A stretch of DNA of 63,748 bases, filler included, from Kipferlia bialata (lineage: Eukaryota), in assembly GCA_003568945.1 (NCBI GenBank). It is 5 parts of 4 records of this genome, joined end to end, with 100 filler letters (N's around TTAATTAATTAA, not from the genome) between each part and the next. Parts side by side here need not be neighbours in the genome. Positions count along the whole stretch, not along the records: positions 49,650 to 58,384 come from BDIP01000629.1; 4 more parts are not named here. One strand, 5' to 3'. Shown here in pieces: positions 16,468 to 62,500 of this stretch. The notes under the pieces were generated by a model. That model ran no database searches and was not told where the DNA came from. It worked only from the letters and a program-made list of their open reading frames with translations. Every line of letters starts with the position of its first letter. Within the stretch, counting starts at the first letter, position 1. The position numbers were made by a program, and so were the translations under genes.

Positions 16468-16567
16468 NNNNNNNNNNNNNNNNNNNNNNNNNNNNNNNNN
16501 NNNNNNNNNNNTTAATTAATTAANNNNNNNNNNNNNNNNNNNNNNNNNNNNNNNNNNNNNNNNNNNN
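16468..16567. other. Artificial contig join (100-nt N spacer with TTAATTAATTAA six-frame stop linker)
   Basis: N run containing ttaattaattaa at 16512-16523, preceded by a poly-C tract. Confidence 0.95.
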
Positions 16568-17013: not shown

Positions 17014-20000
17014 CTAGACCTGACCGGTCTCTCCCTGGGCGATGTAGGTGTCACATCTCTGGCTGAGGTGCTGCCACACATGGGCGTCATATACATGGTA
17101 GGTGTATATAATATACTATATTACCACAGTCCTACTAACCATTGTCACTAGGTATTGTCCCATATACTTAGGACAGGATGAGTATATTATTACAATGCAT
17201 ATGTGCTGCAGGTATAGATCCATTCTATGGCACACCAACACACTAGATACTATTTTACTATCACGTGCATGCTTTCCTCCACAAACACTCACATCTAGCT
17301 ACTCCTGAACGACAATCAAGTCGGAGACGTAGGTAAGGGTGTCCCCAGAAATTGATATATATATATATATATATTTAATTATAATGAATAAGATATATAT
17401 ATAGTATAAGATATATATATTTAATTATAATGAATATTAATTATTGGTAGTATATACATATATGTGTATATATGTGTATGTGCATGTCTCTCCAGACATG
17501 TCGGTCCCGGGTGAGGCCTTTTCCAAGAAATGTACACTAGTAAATGCATATATATATACTTCATATATGTGAATTTGTAAACTCTGCGTCTACCTCCAGG
17601 CCTGTGTGCCCTGTCTGAGACCCACGTATAGTGTATATGCATAAGTCTCTATATATGTATGTGTGTGTGTGTATTATTATTACATATCTCGTTAACAGCC
17701 TAGGCCTGTGTGCCCTGTGTGAGGCCCTGCCCCATGTCCCAGGACTGACCCTGGTACGATGAGGATATACACACGTGTATACATCAATATATGTATATAT
17801 ACACTATATACACACTATTACCATATATATGTATCACATGTCAGGACTGGCCCTGGTACGATGAGAGATATACATACAAGTATATATATATGTATACATG
17901 TATATATATGTATATATATCACACTATATACATATATATGTATCACAGCTCAGGACTGGCCCTGGTACGATGATACGTATACTTCTCCCCCTTTCGCTTG
18001 CATGTAAGTAGACATACATTATAATACATTATTAGTGTAGACATACAATGTATAGACATACACCACTGGTCCTCTCTTGATGTGGATATACAAATATATA
18101 TATATATATATATATATGTGTATACACTATTTACACATATATCACTGTCCCACGTCCCAGCACTGGTCCTGGTATGGTGTATTCGCATATACCTCTCTGT
18201 CTGTCTCAATGAGTTATAACCGGACTCCGTATTATAGTGTAGATGTATGTAGATGTGTGTACGCAAATGTGTATGTGTATACATGGGCATCATCTAACAC
18301 CAGCTGTAATTTGACCGAAACAGTATATATATTGATATAAATATATATATATTGATGTATATATGTATGGATCTATCATCTGACTGAAGCTGTCCCTTGG
18401 CAGAAACAGGATATGCAATGAGGGTGCAGCTGCGCTGGGGAGGGTACTGCCACACATGACTGACATAAGACAGGTTTGGGATACACAGGGTGTATATACA
18501 ATAGTATGTACTATACACACACACATATATATATATTTATAATGAAGGATGACCATCAGTGACATGAGACAGGTGGGGCATACACAGGGTATATACATAC
18601 ATACACTCATATTCAAATGTATGAAGGATGATTACTGTCTTGTATCTGGTTGTATAAAGGACACTCTCATTTTGAGACACCAATATGGATGAATATATGC
18701 AAGTAAATGGGCCTACAGCACCAAATATCCTACGCCCACGCGTATATTGTCTCTCAATGTTACTGCATATACATTTTCGTATTTTGCATATACCATGTAC
18801 TTAACTCCAGGTGCATATGACTGTCTATTATCTTATCATTGTACTGTATACATATATACATATATAGTTGCATATACCATATACCTATACCCAGGTGCAT
18901 GTGACTGTCAACATGTATATATTATATAAACTGTATATGAATATAGGAGTATGTATATCGTGTACCTCATACCAGGTGCATCTGACTGNNNNNNNNNNNN
19001 NNNNNNNNNNNNNNNNNNNNNNNATACCAGGTGCATCTGACTGTCAACAGAGTGGATGACTATGTACATATGACTGTCGACATGTATTTATTATATACTA
19101 TATATGAATATAGGAGTATGTATATCGTGCACCTCATACCAGGTGCATCTGACTGTCAACAGAGTGGATGACTTCGTACATCTGACTGTCAACATGTATA
19201 TATACCCTTCTAACCCCAGGTGCATCTGACTGTCAACAGAGTGGATGACACAGGGGCAGAGTCACTGGCAGAGGGCATATGCCAGATGCCAGGGGAGAGC
19301 CCGGTATGTATACATAGTAGATATATAGGTATATAGATATACAGTGGTTATATAGATATATAATATCACCTGTGCCTCTATAGAGAGGGCATATGCCAGA
19401 TGCGAGGGGAGAGCCCGGTATGTATACATCATATGGTTATACATGCTATATATATACTGCATATGTGTGTACAGCATTTGTATATACCTCTTATGTGTGT
19501 GTGGTAGAAGTGCCAACACTATATACAGTTTTACATATCTACAGTTGAGTCCAGTTTCTTTTGCATATCCTATCTCTAACCATACAGTTCAACCTGCTAG
19601 ACATCGGCTACAACTGCATTGGGGACGATGGTGTGCCACCCCTGGTCCGGTGTCTGTGGCACAGGGACGACTTGGAGGTTAGCAAACAATACTAATATAT
19701 AGTTTATAGCATAGGTTCAGGACTGCATAAGTTTATATTACGCTCTAGATATGTGTCTGTGGCACAGGGACGACCTGGAGGTTAGTATAGTGTACTGTAT
19801 TGCGTTATGTAACGATATATATATAGTATACTATATATATACAACGATATCACAGATCAAGGAGGCAAGATGGAGGACCTTGACGATTAGTTTGTCATTA
19901 TAATCCTTTGCTGCAATACTCACCCTCAGATCCATCTGCGGGGTGGGTATATCATATATGTACTTATGACACCTTGGTATGTGTATGCGAGGATATAGCA

Positions 20001-33010: not shown

Positions 33011-33110
33011 NNNNNNNNNNNNNNNNNNNNNNNNNNNNNNNNNNNNNNNNNNNNTTAATTAATTAANNNNNNNNNNNNNNNNNNNNNNNNNNNNNNNNNN
33101 NNNNNNNNNN
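33011..33110. other. Artificial contig join (100-nt N spacer with TTAATTAATTAA linker)
   Basis: N run with linker at 33055-33066, preceded by poly-C. Confidence 0.95.
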
Positions 33111-49549: not shown

Positions 49550-49649
49550 NNNNNNNNNNNNNNNNNNNNNNNNNNNNNNNNNNNNNNNNNNNNTTAATTA
49601 ATTAANNNNNNNNNNNNNNNNNNNNNNNNNNNNNNNNNNNNNNNNNNNN
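49550..49649. other. Artificial contig join (100-nt N spacer with TTAATTAATTAA linker)
   Basis: N run with linker at 49594-49605, followed by poly-G. Confidence 0.95.
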
Positions 49650-56175: not shown

Positions 56176-58334
56176 TTAGACAGCCAGTCTGGGGTTACCT
56201 GCCCCCTCCCCCCGTGCCATCTTGCCCATGTCCCCCATCTGCCTCTGCCTCCTCTTGACCAGGGTGGACCGGAACTTGGACACAGTCAGAATGCCTGGGT
56301 TAGGTAAATACATATAAACAGGAATATGTATTGTACTCATATGTAGTGTATAAATATATGTCCCCTACCTAGCCACAGCCCCACTGCCAGCAGTGCCAGT
56401 ATGGCCCACAGGGCAGTCTCCATCTTGCCCCACCCGCCCCAGGCTGGGGTGTGAGGGAGAGAGGAGTGCAATGCATATCACAGAGTGGGTATGCATATAT
56501 AAATATATATACTCCATCCGTACCATCCTCTGTCGAGTCGAGCCATGTGGTGGCCAGGGCATCCACCTCACCAGACTCAATCAGCTCCTGGGGGTCAGGG
56601 AGTATACTATACTGCCCGAAGAAATGTACATACATACAGACGAGACACTACCTGCAGTGCCACAATATACACATATCCACAACTCCTCACCTGCAGTGCC
56701 ACGTTGAAGTCATCTCCGTACTCGCCGTATGAGGAGTTGATGTATATCACCTTGGGGTTGATGTTCCACTCACCTGGGGTCATGCTAGGTATATACTTAT
56801 TAACATATTCATAGTATGTTATGGGAAGTATATGTATGGTGTCGTATCATGACTGATAACACATCATACACATGTATATGTACTCTGCTAGTGTACATAT
56901 GGATGTACATACCGTCCACTGAGCATATGACACCCGGGTGCTCCTTGATGACCTGGGGGTGAGTGTGCATAGATATATGCATGTAATACGAATGTATGAA
57001 TGTATCTATAGAAATGGCTATCTGTGCTGTTCACACACCTGGTTGAGTGGCTCCTTGACTGATAGTATGGCGTCTGCCTCCCCACTCTCAAGAAGGGTCA
57101 GAGCATCACTGTAGTCAGCACTCATGTCCACTACATGGGCACCGGTGGACACGGCCTAGGGTGAGAGGGGATAGAGGTATCAGTACGTACCCGGACCACC
57201 CTTACACCTCTACATAGATACGTACCCATGCGTATGTGGCCGAGTTGGGCACTGAGGCAATGGTGTAGTCCTAGGGTGAGGGGTGAGAGATAGGTGGTCT
57301 CTGAGAAATATTTCCACTACTGTGATGTTGCAACCAATAGATACACCCTATATCCATACCGTGAGCGAGTCTGGGTCGAACTGGCTGTCCGATGCTGTGA
57401 TACTGACGACGGTGACAGCAGATACAAACAGGGTCATGAGCACAGACTGGAGCAGGGTGTCGATGCCTATGGGTAAAGGAGAGTGTGTCAAATAATGTAG
57501 ACAGATAGGTGGCACTGCAGTATCTTACTCTATACCTGCCAGTAGTCTGCCCAGAGATGTGTTGATCTTGGTCAGGTCATACCTGGGGTGAGGGGTATAG
57601 CTTAGAGAGAACAGTGACTTGTAATCACAAGACGTGATATATATGTTGATAGACACATACCCCAGCACACTGAAGTAGAATGCCATCAGTGCCTCCTTCT
57701 GATAGGGCTCACCCCGGGAGGAGGAGTTGCCAAAGTGCTGGGGTGAGAGGGTGTATATCTATATATTTACACATATAGACCTAGACAGGCCGAGACTACA
57801 TCTGTACAATACCTGTGTGCAGTAGATAAGGTTGGCAAAGACCATGTGGCTCAGCAGCAGGACGGCTGGGGTGAGTGTCACACAGCATATCGAGTAATTG
57901 CAGCTGAACTGAGACATGCAACGACATGGATAACAGTGGTGTGACATGCATCACTCACCTAGCAGGTTGACTGCCACCGGGTCAAAGAGGGGGGAGAACA
58001 TGGAGACAGCTGCATTGCCTGGGGGTGGGAAGGAGGGACATCGGCAAATGAATATATATGTAGAGCACACATCCAGAGTTAATTATCCCAAAGATATACA
58101 TATGACAAAAGCTGTACCTGCGCTATTGTCACAGAGTGTGGCAAACCCAACCCCGCCTGTCCTGAATGACACGGTTGGTCTTACGTTCTTCAGCATCCTT
58201 GCACTAGTCGCAGAACATGCACTAAGGTGAGGAGGGTGAGGGAGAGGGAGAGCCTCAGGAGTGTTTGGAAGTAAACGCAGTGCACTTACTAAGATCACTC
58301 ACTTTAGGTACACCGGGTACTCATCGTTGGACAC
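56176..58334 (-). CDS. Ionotropic glutamate receptor-like ligand-gated channel (S1-M1-P-M3-S2-M4); N-terminus lost at contig end
   Basis: About 13 exons splice in frame: S1 end CSATSARMLKNVRPTVSFRTGGVGF; M1 SMFSPLFDPVAVNLLAVLLLSHMVFANLIYC; P-loop EALMAFYFSVLGYDLTKINTSLGRLLAG; M3 LLQSVLMTLFVSAVTVVSIT; S2 IASVPNSAT...DYSDALTLLESGEADAIL...FNVALQELIESGEVDALATTWL; M4 ALWAILALLAVGLWLGILTV; basic tail to TAA 56176. Confidence 0.82.
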
Positions 58335-58384: not shown

Positions 58385-58484
58385 NNNNNNNNNNNNNNNN
58401 NNNNNNNNNNNNNNNNNNNNNNNNNNNNTTAATTAATTAANNNNNNNNNNNNNNNNNNNNNNNNNNNNNNNNNNNNNNNNNNNN
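58385..58484. other. Artificial contig join (100-nt N spacer with TTAATTAATTAA linker)
   Basis: N run with linker at 58429-58440, flanked by poly-G. Confidence 0.95.
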
Positions 58485-58615: not shown

Positions 58616-59533
58616 CCTGGACCCTTGTAGAGCCTGGAACCAGCAGGCCAGCACCATTAAAGGCTATGGTTAGAGGGAATACACAAGAAGAGAGAGGAAA
58701 GAACCATACAACCCCACTGCCCAAGTACCTGCTGCGTCGGAAACCTGCTGGGACGGGTCGATGATGCCTGGGGTGAACGAGACGGTGCATGGAGGCATGT
58801 ACACCAGCGTAACAGAGTCAGATGCTATAGCATGATTGCACTGGACAGTTCATGAGTGTTAGTAGCACAAAGCATATATATATATATACCTTGAGCACGG
58901 CCAGAGATGGTCCTGCTGCCAGTGACAGTCGGCTTGTTGTCACATGCGTCTGCAGAGACCACCTTCTGGGGTCAGTGGGAGAGACATATCCACACAGAGA
59001 GAGGGAATCACTGAACACCCCAGTACCCACCGACACCCGACTGTATATGGACACTACAAGTAATGGCACTACACATACACATTCTACTCACCTGGGTCCG
59101 TCTCCTCGAGGAGGCCAGGCCTATTCTGGAGCCAGAGGCATCCTTAGGTGAGAAGACAGTGGCAGGCGTTGAGTCCCCAGGGACCAAACAGTAGAATACA
59201 CTGAGATATCAAGACAAGGACGCAGCCGATCATATGGCTTACCTCGTGGCGCCCTCGGGCGAATGATGGGCCATCCTCGATCTGAGAAGAGGACCCAAAC
59301 TGGTGTAAGAGCAGAACTAACCTAACTATGGACATAAGGGATAAGGGGAGAATGAATAAGAGGGACAGTAACGAAACCAGGGATAAAGTCCGCCTATCAT
59401 CACCATATGCAACACCCAGCGACAGAAAGAGAAGGATACACGTCACTTCACTCACCCTGGAGTTCCTTGGGCAGGAAGCGGCACGGCTGCTTCTGATCCT
59501 TGTACTAGTGACGTCGGTGAGAGTGTCAGACAT
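58616..59533 (-). CDS. 5' part of a hypothetical Ser/Arg-rich multi-exon protein running into the contig end
   Basis: Short exons with GT-AG boundaries: MSDTLTDVTSTRIRSSRAASCPRNSR, FGSSSQIEDGPSFARGRHE, DASGSRIGLASSRRRTQ, KVVSADACDNKPTV. Confidence 0.35.
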
Positions 59534-62500
59534 TCAGACTGGTGTGAGAGCACTGCTGTTGTTGCGAAGGAGTAAAGGAGTTGCAGAAATGATTAATAGG
59601 GACGAAGCTGGCCAAACACCTAGCTGTCAATTGCAGAGAAGAGTACACAAAGATAGTAGCTCAGATATTGACACTCGAGGAAGAATCCAATAAAACGAAA
59701 CACATGCCATCAAATCTGCTGTCTGCTGTTCCTGCTCCAACATAACAGGACCTCTGCCCTATAGACATCATCCTTCAAACCGTAACAGACTGTTCATAGA
59801 GAACACAGACGAAGTATTCAGAAAGAAAGAAAGCCTCAAACAATAAAACTGTAGAAGGCTCAATCAATGACTGTACAGTGCCCAACTGTAGATATAGGCT
59901 TGCTGGTTGAGACAAGGGTCCCAAAAGCCACCAGTCTCGTCATCATACCTGTATATTGTTCCGAGAACAGTCGAGACTCGAGGCCGAGGAGACTCATCGG
60001 CCATTCATTAGTTTAGGGCCTCCTGCTCTCGTTGAGAAATGGAGATCAAGAGTCGGTGTCTGGGGGTATCAAGCAACAACTATGACAACAGAGAGTCAGG
60101 TAACAACGCTGTGTAATGTCTATACCTGTGTATATGTGTTATCAACCGGTTTTAGGTATTTCAGGTGGTGACCCGTATATTCATGTACATGAAGAACACT
60201 ATTATAGCAAGACAAGAATATTGGGGGGATATGGGGGTAGAGAGGGAGAGAGACAAGTCAAATCACCCGAGAAAATACATCATGACATACTATACATGTA
60301 TATATGGCATAATTAAGGAAGAGAATTGGGATGACAGTGCAACGCGTAATAGTAGTGACCAGCACAATGGAGATACAAACTTACCTTCGTCCACACTAAA
60401 TATACACTCAATAATACATCCATTGTGGGGTGAGGAGATATAGCTAGTGGTACACAACTCCTAGTTCAGTTCAGTGCTCCCCTTATAGACATTGAAGTGT
60501 GTGAGAGTAGGTAATGTGGCGGTCATTAGACACAAGGTATTGAGAGACACATCATAACACACGTGTATTTGCAAAGAATGACGGTAACCCCACTCAATTA
60601 TACGTAATAAAGCACACACATTAAGATTCACACATGGAAGTACCTTGGAGCGACTCCCATAGCCCTGTATAGCAGTAAAGTCCAGAGTACAAGTTTGCAT
60701 TCAAATATTGTCGCGAATAGATTGCTATGACTATTAGATGGTGTATTAGTGTAAAACATACCTATATAGCTCCCAATGAATGCACTGAAGTCATCATAGG
60801 TGCCAATAGACGTGCCTGTTCTGCAGTCTTAAGGGAAGGTGGTTCTACACCCTTTTCTGTGTTTGCCATCCTGATACTTAGTCAGCCCATACACACCCAG
60901 GAAGCCACTATGGGACAATATGTACACAATACGACACCTTTGTTAGTTATATACGAACAACATACTTTTTCAACTGGCTCTGGAGGCCAATTTTAGGGTA
61001 ACTTCTGACACACGAAATTTCATCATTGTACAGTGATATACATCTGGGTACTCATTGTTCAGAGGTCTCTGACGCTGACGTTGACATAGTGCAGAGTACC
61101 CATATCATCGTCACTTGAGACATGCATTTGATATCTCCCTGAAACGAGGGAATCTCAGCCCATGTCTCAATTCATAGTCATGCACTATCATAGACACTTA
61201 CTGATAGTGTACCCTGCAGTATACTCATGAGCAACACCACATTGTGATTTAGTTGACTTCAAAGAACTGTATGGCTGCACACAAATCACTCTCCACACAA
61301 AGTATGCTGGAGTACGCCCCCACTCATCCCAACCTCTCTCTCAGTCTCCCCACAGCTTGAACCCCACATACACGCCGTCCCAGGTGTCTGGGTGATACAC
61401 ACATTAATAGTCCACGCCTGACCTATCCTTTGTATCCCCCCCCTCCCCCCACCCTCCCCCTCCCCTCTTACCTCCCCACCTCTACCAAGACTCACCCTCC
61501 CTCTCATCTCCCGAGTCTCTTGCCACTAAGTACTGACTCAGCAACTCCAACGTGTATCAATACACTACATACCCTCCGACTGCGTGACTCCCCATTCGGA
61601 CGTTCACTTGGCCTATATATACCTCGTTCTGACGTCTACCTATGGGGAGAAGAGGATACACGTTGTGTGTCATATAGCTGACTCATCAAATATATATACT
61701 CTCTCAGTGTCACTCTGTCTCTGTCAGTAAGAGTCCTGTCCTCAAGCAAACAGATATATACAAATATATATCCATATATATACTGCTTGGTATCCTTAAG
61801 AGTGTATGACAGATCTGTTGATCTACTTCTACTCAACAAAGTACCTAACATATCGTTCATGTGTATATACTGATGCTGACCTCTGCTGGGTACCTGTATG
61901 TCATGGTACCATATTCTGGGCCTAGTATTGGCATGAAGAGGCCTAAGAGTTATACTCCCACGTCCTGAGTCAGTACAAGACATGAATATGAGTATGGGGA
62001 TGAGTCTTCTCTATAGACACGTGGAGTTGCCCTAGGGGTAAGGGAAGGGGGATATAGGGCAGAAAGGGAGAGTGTGAGAGACCTGCCATGACAATTCATG
62101 ACATGGTACCACAACCCTGCGTTGAGTATCGGAGTAATCGGGTGAGAGACAACGAGGATAGGCCGCTAACTAGTCGAGTAATACTGCTCGAAACATCAGC
62201 ATACTTACATCTATATCATACAATGTTATCACCTCAACTACAGAACAAGCCACCTGCAATAATAATCATGTGGGGGAAGCGCAACAGTATCAGTGAACAC
62301 CAGATGAGGCAGATGGGCGACCTGGTGATGAGACGGAGGGAGGCTCCTATTCAACCACGTGCCCTATCAATGGTTCCGTGCATAACACAACACACATACT
62401 GTGAAACGGTAACCTGCCTGAAAAAGACCAGGAATGTATAATAATTCATAGTATAGGAGGTTCCCAGTTAGTGTACTCACTGTGAATGTGACAAACGATT

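Follow-up and report, generated by a model that had tools for sequence, protein, structure and literature searches.

The Kipferlia bialata gene analysed here belongs, as judged by sequence comparison, to a real, expressed-looking, unannotated and divergent gene family inside the iGluR superfamily, and this family lies outside the GluR0, AMPA/NMDA, GLR and IR families as these are defined. Kipferlia bialata is a free-living anaerobic flagellate, a fornicate metamonad (Fornicata). The encoded protein is likely a cell-surface chemical sensor that would admit cations on binding a small acid, for instance an amino acid.

The gene is located on the minus strand of the window (the whole stretch of DNA that was analysed, 63,748 nucleotides including filler) and runs from 58334, the first exon base, to 56176, the end of the stop codon, and both ends given in the original prediction were exact. 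It consists of 14 exons of 32-119 nt, where about 13 small exons had been predicted, and 13 GT-AG introns of 69-139 nt with acceptors that are all pyrimidine-rich and of the ..AC..C[CT]AG type. The spliced sequence of 1023 nt encodes 340 residues with zero internal stops and is a 100% match to residues 117-456 of the public Kipferlia bialata protein P0001 (KIPB_003325, "hypothetical protein"), whose residue numbering is used throughout. The domain order is S1-M1-pore loop-M3-S2-fourth helix, and the three membrane peaks in the hydropathy profile correspond to M1, M3 and a segment beyond S2. The motifs quoted previously were all recovered: the pore motif FYFSVLGYDLTKINTSLGR, which is interrupted by intron 5, the M3 motif LFVSAVTVVSIT, and TSAR in S1 with its arginine (R135) at 58199-58197. 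The features are as follows.

58303..58334, minus strand: exon 1 in the window; S1 lobe, residues 117-127 of P0001, phase 0
58118..58221, minus strand: exon 2; last part of S1, which includes S130, T132 and the Arg135 (58199-58197) that binds the carboxylate
57959..58018, minus strand: exon 3; pre-M1 segment and start of M1, from hydropathy
57813..57865, minus strand: exon 4; remainder of M1 with the invariant His188 (57848-57846)
57661..57737, minus strand: exon 5; M1-P loop, predicted pore helix Y211-S222 (57704-57669) and filter start V223-L224-G225
57536..57582, minus strand: exon 6; remainder of the filter (Y226-D227), loop, and the GR that opens M3
57360..57466, minus strand: exon 7; M3 with the invariant Asp243 (57461-57459) and LFVSAVTVV replacing SYTANLAAF, M3-S2 linker
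57226..57270, minus strand: exon 8; start of S2 with S286-A287-T288
57039..57155, minus strand: exon 9; S2 with Val324 (57059-57057) at the conserved S2 Asp position
56913..56952, minus strand: exon 10; S2
56691..56773, minus strand: exon 11; S2 hinge strand and helix
56524..56587, minus strand: exon 12; final S2 helix
56369..56443, minus strand: exon 13; fourth (M4-position) membrane helix, hydropathy peak 2.4
56176..56294, minus strand: exon 14; helix end, basic cytosolic tail, C-terminal P-x-[LM]-x-V and stop
58617..59533, minus strand: exons used by the public model as residues 1-116; likely a different gene, outside the channel

The exon chain was compared with contigs from a single run, X1, whose RNA nature was guessed and which possibly derives from the window's own sample. 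Thirteen joints were found over the channel gene and 12 of these, all with CT..AC ends, have the lengths of predicted introns, so that the joining of the exons is bridged for 12/13 introns given that X1 is RNA as guessed. The thirteenth joint (56296-57364, GG..TG ends, 24-letter side) matches no predicted intron, and the X1 backing for intron 4 consists of two loose ends matching the adjacent exons only.

Because exon 1 adjoins a poly-G run followed by an N gap (58385-58484), the 5' part of the channel gene is absent from the window, and the true 5' exons, encoding the signal peptide and the first half of S1, lie outside it. The KIPB_003325 model crosses this gap with 116 low-complexity residues taken from the exons at 59533-58617. 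These residues were rejected as part of the channel on three lines: the 644-nt X1 contig holding exons 1-4 extends, by arithmetic from the contig table, about 380 letters past exon 1; the contig over the 58617-59533 exons departs from the window at 58616 and continues with 544 letters of other sequence; and the 116 residues gave no match to the first S1 half in the N-terminal fragments of the family. The interval 58617-60790 on the minus strand contains a separate spliced transcript with seven joints (CT..AC ends) and a Ser/Arg-rich low-complexity frame from 59533, preceded by a multi-exon 5' leader, that runs 544 nt past the window. Thus KIPB_003325 appears to be a chimera of the channel and this neighbouring transcript, the public model having likely fused another gene onto the channel 5' end; alternatively, there may be a single long transcript spanning the 58385-58484 gap. 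A partial Kipferlia protein of 119 aa (P0144, KIPB_010455, 357 nt) combines a hydrophobic start with the first S1 half; it is nearest to the subclade of the channel gene (59% to P0003), and has as its final residue the one before the first residue of exon 1. By these alignments P0144 is likely the missing N-terminal part of the channel gene.

The N gap is one of four identical 100-base spacers in the window (N run, TTAATTAATTAA, N run; 16468-16567, 33011-33110, 49550-49649 and 58385-58484), and given that these mark joins of separate pieces, the neighbourhood across them is unreliable. One plain N run is present at 18989-19023.

The prediction of an iGluR-superfamily protein in a protist, with split binding lobes flanking M1-P-M3, was supported by profile matches to GluR0-type proteins from S1 through S2, which revealed split SBP-family-3 lobes and a homologous M1-P-M3. 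A profile of eight Kipferlia copies was searched against 1.84 billion representatives and gave 437 matches at E<=0.001. Among the best 150 of these, the full-span non-Kipferlia matches were GluR0-type proteins, mostly of 330-400 aa; one was named as cyanobacterial and most were metagenomic. A profile built solely from the ten Kipferlia copies matched that of 62 GluR0-type proteins over 326 columns, S1 through S2 (99.95%, E 3e-38). Since these 62 comparison proteins had been picked by the Kipferlia profile itself, the membrane part was also compared alone, and it matched the GluR0-type membrane part at 97.9% with a score of 69.7, whereas 60 column shuffles reached 18.7 at most and the reversed profile 9.5. 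Against the PDB the Kipferlia-only profile matched, with E values of 1e-9 to 1e-8, chains of GluR0, AvGluR1 and NMDA receptors, with amino-acid-binding proteins beside these iGluR chains and periplasmic binding proteins as the top matches.

The SBP_bac_3 curated cut-off was passed across the membrane insert in 4/10 Kipferlia copies, and the two other Pfam models proposed for the check, Lig_chan and Ion_trans_2, matched in 0/10; both Lig_chan and SBP_bac_3 were found at E<=0.001 in all 26 of the 26 non-Kipferlia matches scanned. The channel copy alone fails the SBP_bac_3 cut-off because half of its S1 is missing. Given that the full-span and membrane-only profiles match GluR0-type proteins, the missing Lig_chan and Ion_trans_2 matches would reflect the limits of detection, and such a match would not be what defines the superfamily. 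In NCBIfam there were weak matches to ABC binding proteins and nothing stronger, and a weak PKD_6 match in Pfam, below the cut-off, was discarded. Look-alikes by protein language model, a single source that provides no alignment, were Lig_chan clusters (0.94 for the channel core and 0.96 for a full paralog), and the neighbours in the ESM Atlas were Lig_chan clusters of algae, diatoms and plants together with SBP clusters of giant viruses. AlphaFold models were of low confidence (mean pLDDT 41.6 for the single protein and 38.0 with an eight-sequence alignment); a Foldseek search with the low-confidence model gave no match at E<=0.001, and all 41 rows listed were iGluRs. No relatives were detected in metagenome, prokaryote-genome or viral contigs or in plasmids, in scans that are insensitive to intron-rich or distant genes.

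Two further observations were made during these searches. The giant-virus clusters in the ESM Atlas (360-370 aa, SBP_bac_3) score 0.92-0.95 against the Kipferlia family, and no relative was found in the viral contigs. Four of the proteins found (P0041, P0045, P0076 and P0081) are GluR0-type channels located behind a CAAX-protease-like, an ABC-2 membrane or an OpuAC betaine-binding domain.

The gene is a member of a multicopy family, which the original prediction did not mention. Word-based protein searches recovered eight Kipferlia proteins only, and the searches together gave ten Kipferlia proteins with the membrane domain and three N-terminal fragments. Some of these fragments may derive from truncated copies and the family size is therefore given as at least ten copies; the public labels go no further than "solute-binding protein family 3". 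For the filter region and M3 the ten copies had mean identities of 0.77 and 0.69, compared to 0.33 in S2 and 0.37 at the end of S1; the corresponding values for the 62 GluR0-type proteins were 0.43 (filter region), 0.29 (M3) and 0.32 (S2). The pores in the family are thus conserved and the binding lobes divergent, a pattern that resembles that of the insect IRs. Three family members begin with hydrophobic signal-like stretches with S1 close behind, the paralogs have 77-107 residues upstream of the point where the channel gene starts in the window, and no amino-terminal (LIVBP) domain was found in them. From these paralogs we infer that the channel protein probably lacks an amino-terminal domain. 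P0002 and P0003 are located on contigs of equal size (14289), which suggests a tandem pair, and gene models seem to have been joined wrongly both at the P0002 N-terminus and in P0012, where an S1 half is combined with an RRM label.

The filter of the channel protein reads V-L-G-Y-D (residues V223-D227), with Gly225, Asp227 and Leu228 invariant across the Kipferlia copies. The original prediction of a degenerate K-channel-like pore was correct in that the pore is homologous to that of GluR0-type proteins, 44/62 of which have a TVGYG-like filter. It did not hold for the signature itself: 10/10 Kipferlia copies lack two residues of TxVGYG, its Thr and its second Gly, the latter being replaced by the invariant Asp, and a K+ signature was therefore rejected. 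In its place is G-x-D, found in 10/10 Kipferlia copies, 9/12 distinct animal-type pore exons and 4/62 GluR0-type proteins, so that by its residues the Kipferlia filter resembles the animal-type QGxD pores over those of the GluR0 type, and VLGYD would accordingly not be classed as a K+ filter. The distance from Tyr211 to the filter Gly is 14 residues in Kipferlia compared to 17-19 in GluR0-type proteins (3-5 shorter), indicating that the pore may be built differently, and that from the filter Gly to the M3 Arg is 12 residues, likewise in 61/62 GluR0-type proteins. The absence of SYTANLA from M3 was borne out, LFVSAVTVV occupying the position where animal-type proteins have SYTANLAAF. His188 in M1 and Asp243 in M3 are invariant in Kipferlia and not among the common GluR0-type residues at these positions; it is our guess that they form a pair.

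A helix following S2 was present in 9/10 Kipferlia copies and in 0/62 GluR0-type proteins. The claim of an M4 helix is supported as regards its presence and position. Homology to animal M4 was not detected in a weak test, the profile score of 12.2, obtained against three animal-type sequences only, being within that of the shuffles (maximum 14.5). Behind the helix is a basic tail (8 K/R in residues 424-445), and the charge bias fits lobes outside and tail inside. The C-terminus P-x-[LM]-x-V (56176-56193 in the channel gene; also P0002-P0007) occurs in 7/7 full-length main-clade copies, on tails of differing length, and may be a PDZ-type or sorting signal.

In the binding lobes, S1 retains Ser130, Thr132 and Arg135. 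The arginine, correctly predicted to be kept for the alpha-carboxylate, is present in the 8/8 Kipferlia copies that cover the site and in 61/62 GluR0-type proteins. The S2 acid that contacts the alpha-amino group is present in 57/62 GluR0-type proteins; in the channel copy this position is Val324 and the acid is also missing from six other Kipferlia copies, an Asp being kept in 3/10. Hence the proposal of an amino-acid chemosensor is favoured by the S1 Arg and weakened by the loss of the S2 acid here and in most copies, and an amino acid is a likely ligand, not a given one. From these residues the ligand would be a carboxylate-bearing small molecule, likely an amino acid.

Taken as a fairly probable reading, the protein, with its split lobes, a putative re-entrant pore loop and a fourth membrane helix, would be one subunit of a Kipferlia family of the iGluR superfamily that forms a tetrameric, ligand-opened and non-K+-selective cation channel in the plasma membrane. 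If it works by the mechanism established for iGluRs, the signal peptide would place S1 outside the cell, the ligand carboxylate would dock on Arg135, and closing of the clamshell would pull the M3-S2 linker and open the M3 bundle. Asp227 would stand in for the acid that AMPA-type receptors have where the pore opens to the cytosol, K+ selectivity would be abolished with the filter Thr and second Gly gone, and entry of Na+/Ca2+ would cause a depolarisation by which flagellar movement or feeding is steered. The various copies may be tuned to different ligands on a shared pore, like the insect IRs; a constant pore combined with variable lobes, many of which lack an amino-acid contact, is in line with how insect IRs are defined (PMC2924276, accessible text) and suggests a chemosensory repertoire. 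Non-selective cation passage is suggested by the absence of a K+ signature together with the acid, which in AMPA-type pores supports the passage of cations from this position, according to the accessible text of PMC11479355.

Selectivity cannot be read from the motif, however, given that AvGluR1 has TXVGYG and yet conducts Na+ (PMC3483616, accessible text), and a GluR0-like, K+-preferring amino-acid-gated channel, in which the G-Y carbonyls form K+ sites and opening hyperpolarises the cell, has to be considered. Such a channel would agree with the retained G-Y (or G-W), with the GluR0-type spacing between the filter Gly and the M3 Arg, and with the best full-span matches, which among those listed are GluR0-type proteins mostly with a TVGYG-like filter; we regard it as quite improbable when both the Thr and the second Gly are missing from every copy, an invariant Asp has taken the place of the latter, and the pore segment is shortened. 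Somewhat less improbable, although still unlikely, is a receptor that is non-conducting or not ligand-gated (compare GluD, some GLRs and the IR tuning subunits) and that binds ligand but signals through its conformation, through a partner at the cytosolic C-terminus or only as part of a heteromer. The hydrophobic Val-Leu at the filter entrance, the shortened pore segment, the invariant intramembrane His188 and Asp243 unlike those of GluR0-type proteins, the lost S2 acid and the conserved C-terminal motif would all fit this, whereas the filter region is the best conserved part of the protein, which is most easily explained if the pore conducts.

That the protein is no channel at all, but a bacterial-type solute-binding sensor or transporter part that is iGluR-like in its lobes only, is very improbable. 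The public labels, the periplasmic binding proteins at the top of the PDB matches and the SBP-plus-helix modules of bacterial sensor kinases among the matches point in that direction, but the membrane insert interrupts the binding domain just where it does in iGluRs and, taken alone, matches the GluR0-type pore far above shuffles, which largely refutes it.

The origin of the family was examined with trees of 52 sequences, including 22/44 K-filter proteins, 9/10 Kipferlia copies (P0008 left out) and three animal-type sequences, with no plant, algal or rotifer sequences. The animal-type sequences came from a scan for the SYTANLAAF pattern that gave 117 metagenome loci, with the motif in frame in 89/118 loci, only three of which had open frames long enough for the tree and the M4 test. 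Kipferlia formed one group on a long stem (1.4) with no supported sister, and a tree forcing Kipferlia together with the three animal-type sequences was not rejected (AU p 0.65), its score exceeding that of the quick free tree by 12 log units. No donor or event order was read from the tree. The architecture had been described as intermediate between GluR0 and eukaryotic iGluRs; this is true of the domain content and does not extend to ancestry, because the tree gives no decision between grouping Kipferlia with the animal-type sequences and keeping them apart, and the fourth helix has no detected homology to M4. An independent origin, in which Kipferlia took up a GluR0-type channel from bacteria that then evolved a fourth helix and tail of its own, had its pore rebuilt around a short new G-Y/W-D filter and a buried pair of His and Asp, and was amplified to more than ten copies that diversified only in the lobes, is a tentative and rather doubtful scenario; if true, it would be a protist counterpart of the insect IRs by convergence.

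GluR0 (Synechocystis Slr1257) and the prokaryotic iGluR groups 1 and 2 have the layout signal peptide-S1-M1-P-M3-S2 and no amino-terminal domain, and prokaryotic iGluRs without the K+ filter are known (Ger et al. 2010, PMC2950845, accessible text). GluR0 and Kipferlia proteins are alike in the S1 Arg, the lack of SYTANLA and the profile match over 326 columns. They differ in the helix and tail after S2 (9/10 in Kipferlia and 0/62 in GluR0-type proteins), VLGYD instead of TxVGYG, the pore segment that is 3-5 residues shorter, the mostly lost S2 Asp and the low identity (about 16-20%), and in that Kipferlia has an intron-rich eukaryotic multigene family. AvGluR1 of the rotifer Adineta vaga is, like the Kipferlia proteins, a eukaryotic iGluR with a fourth helix and a GY filter, and its binding domain was matched at E 2e-8; it has an amino-terminal domain, which Kipferlia proteins lack. 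Judging from the accessible texts, AvGluR1 keeps TXVGYG (PMC3483616), absent from Kipferlia, has a modular GLR/iGluR architecture (PMC11479355) and has already been described as a transitional form (10.1101/2021.01.27.428399, PMC11479355).

Animal AMPA/kainate/NMDA receptors and plant GLRs share with Kipferlia the order S1-M1-P-M3-S2-M4-tail, and the animal-type pore exons share G-x-D (9/12). Kipferlia proteins differ from both in having no amino-terminal domain, no SYTANLA, no Lig_chan match and a fourth helix without detected homology. The insect/protostome IRs are similar in their lineage expansion, the loss of the ATD and lobes missing some glutamate-binding residues (Croset et al. 2010, PMC2924276, accessible text), but IRs keep Lig_chan and have N-termini of about 200 residues, and the likeness is one of analogy only, with no evidence of kinship. 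Short Lig_chan clusters of green algae and diatoms (430-490 aa) and the SBP_bac_3 clusters of giant viruses (360-370 aa) are similar to Kipferlia in length and model features (0.92-0.96). These clusters are leads only: the comparison comes without alignment, most of the cluster members match Lig_chan whereas Kipferlia does not, and none was identified among the 150 matches listed; with such clusters known, the short layout of Kipferlia is unlikely to be unique.

In the accessible text of a 2010 survey, iGluRs were absent from the unicellular eukaryotes examined (PMC2924276), and according to that of a 2021 preprint an N-terminal domain is part of the layout common to all eukaryotic iGluRs (10.1101/2021.01.27.428399). 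A literature search, with subscription journals mostly and supplements outside its scope, turned up no publication that connects Kipferlia with iGluRs or with ion channels, and among the listed papers on Kipferlia and glutamate there was, judged by title, no receptor paper.

A minimal iGluR-like family of at least ten genes that is invisible to Pfam in a metamonad would provide a deep-branching data point on the origins of these receptors, and it illustrates that standard searches miss such families. With about 450 residues, a filter that stands midway from TxVGYG to QGxD and a fourth helix, its members would constitute a small natural test of how K-type selectivity is lost and of the role of M4 in receptors without an N-terminal domain. 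For the organism itself, the family represents a set of candidate chemoreceptors for an anaerobic flagellate.
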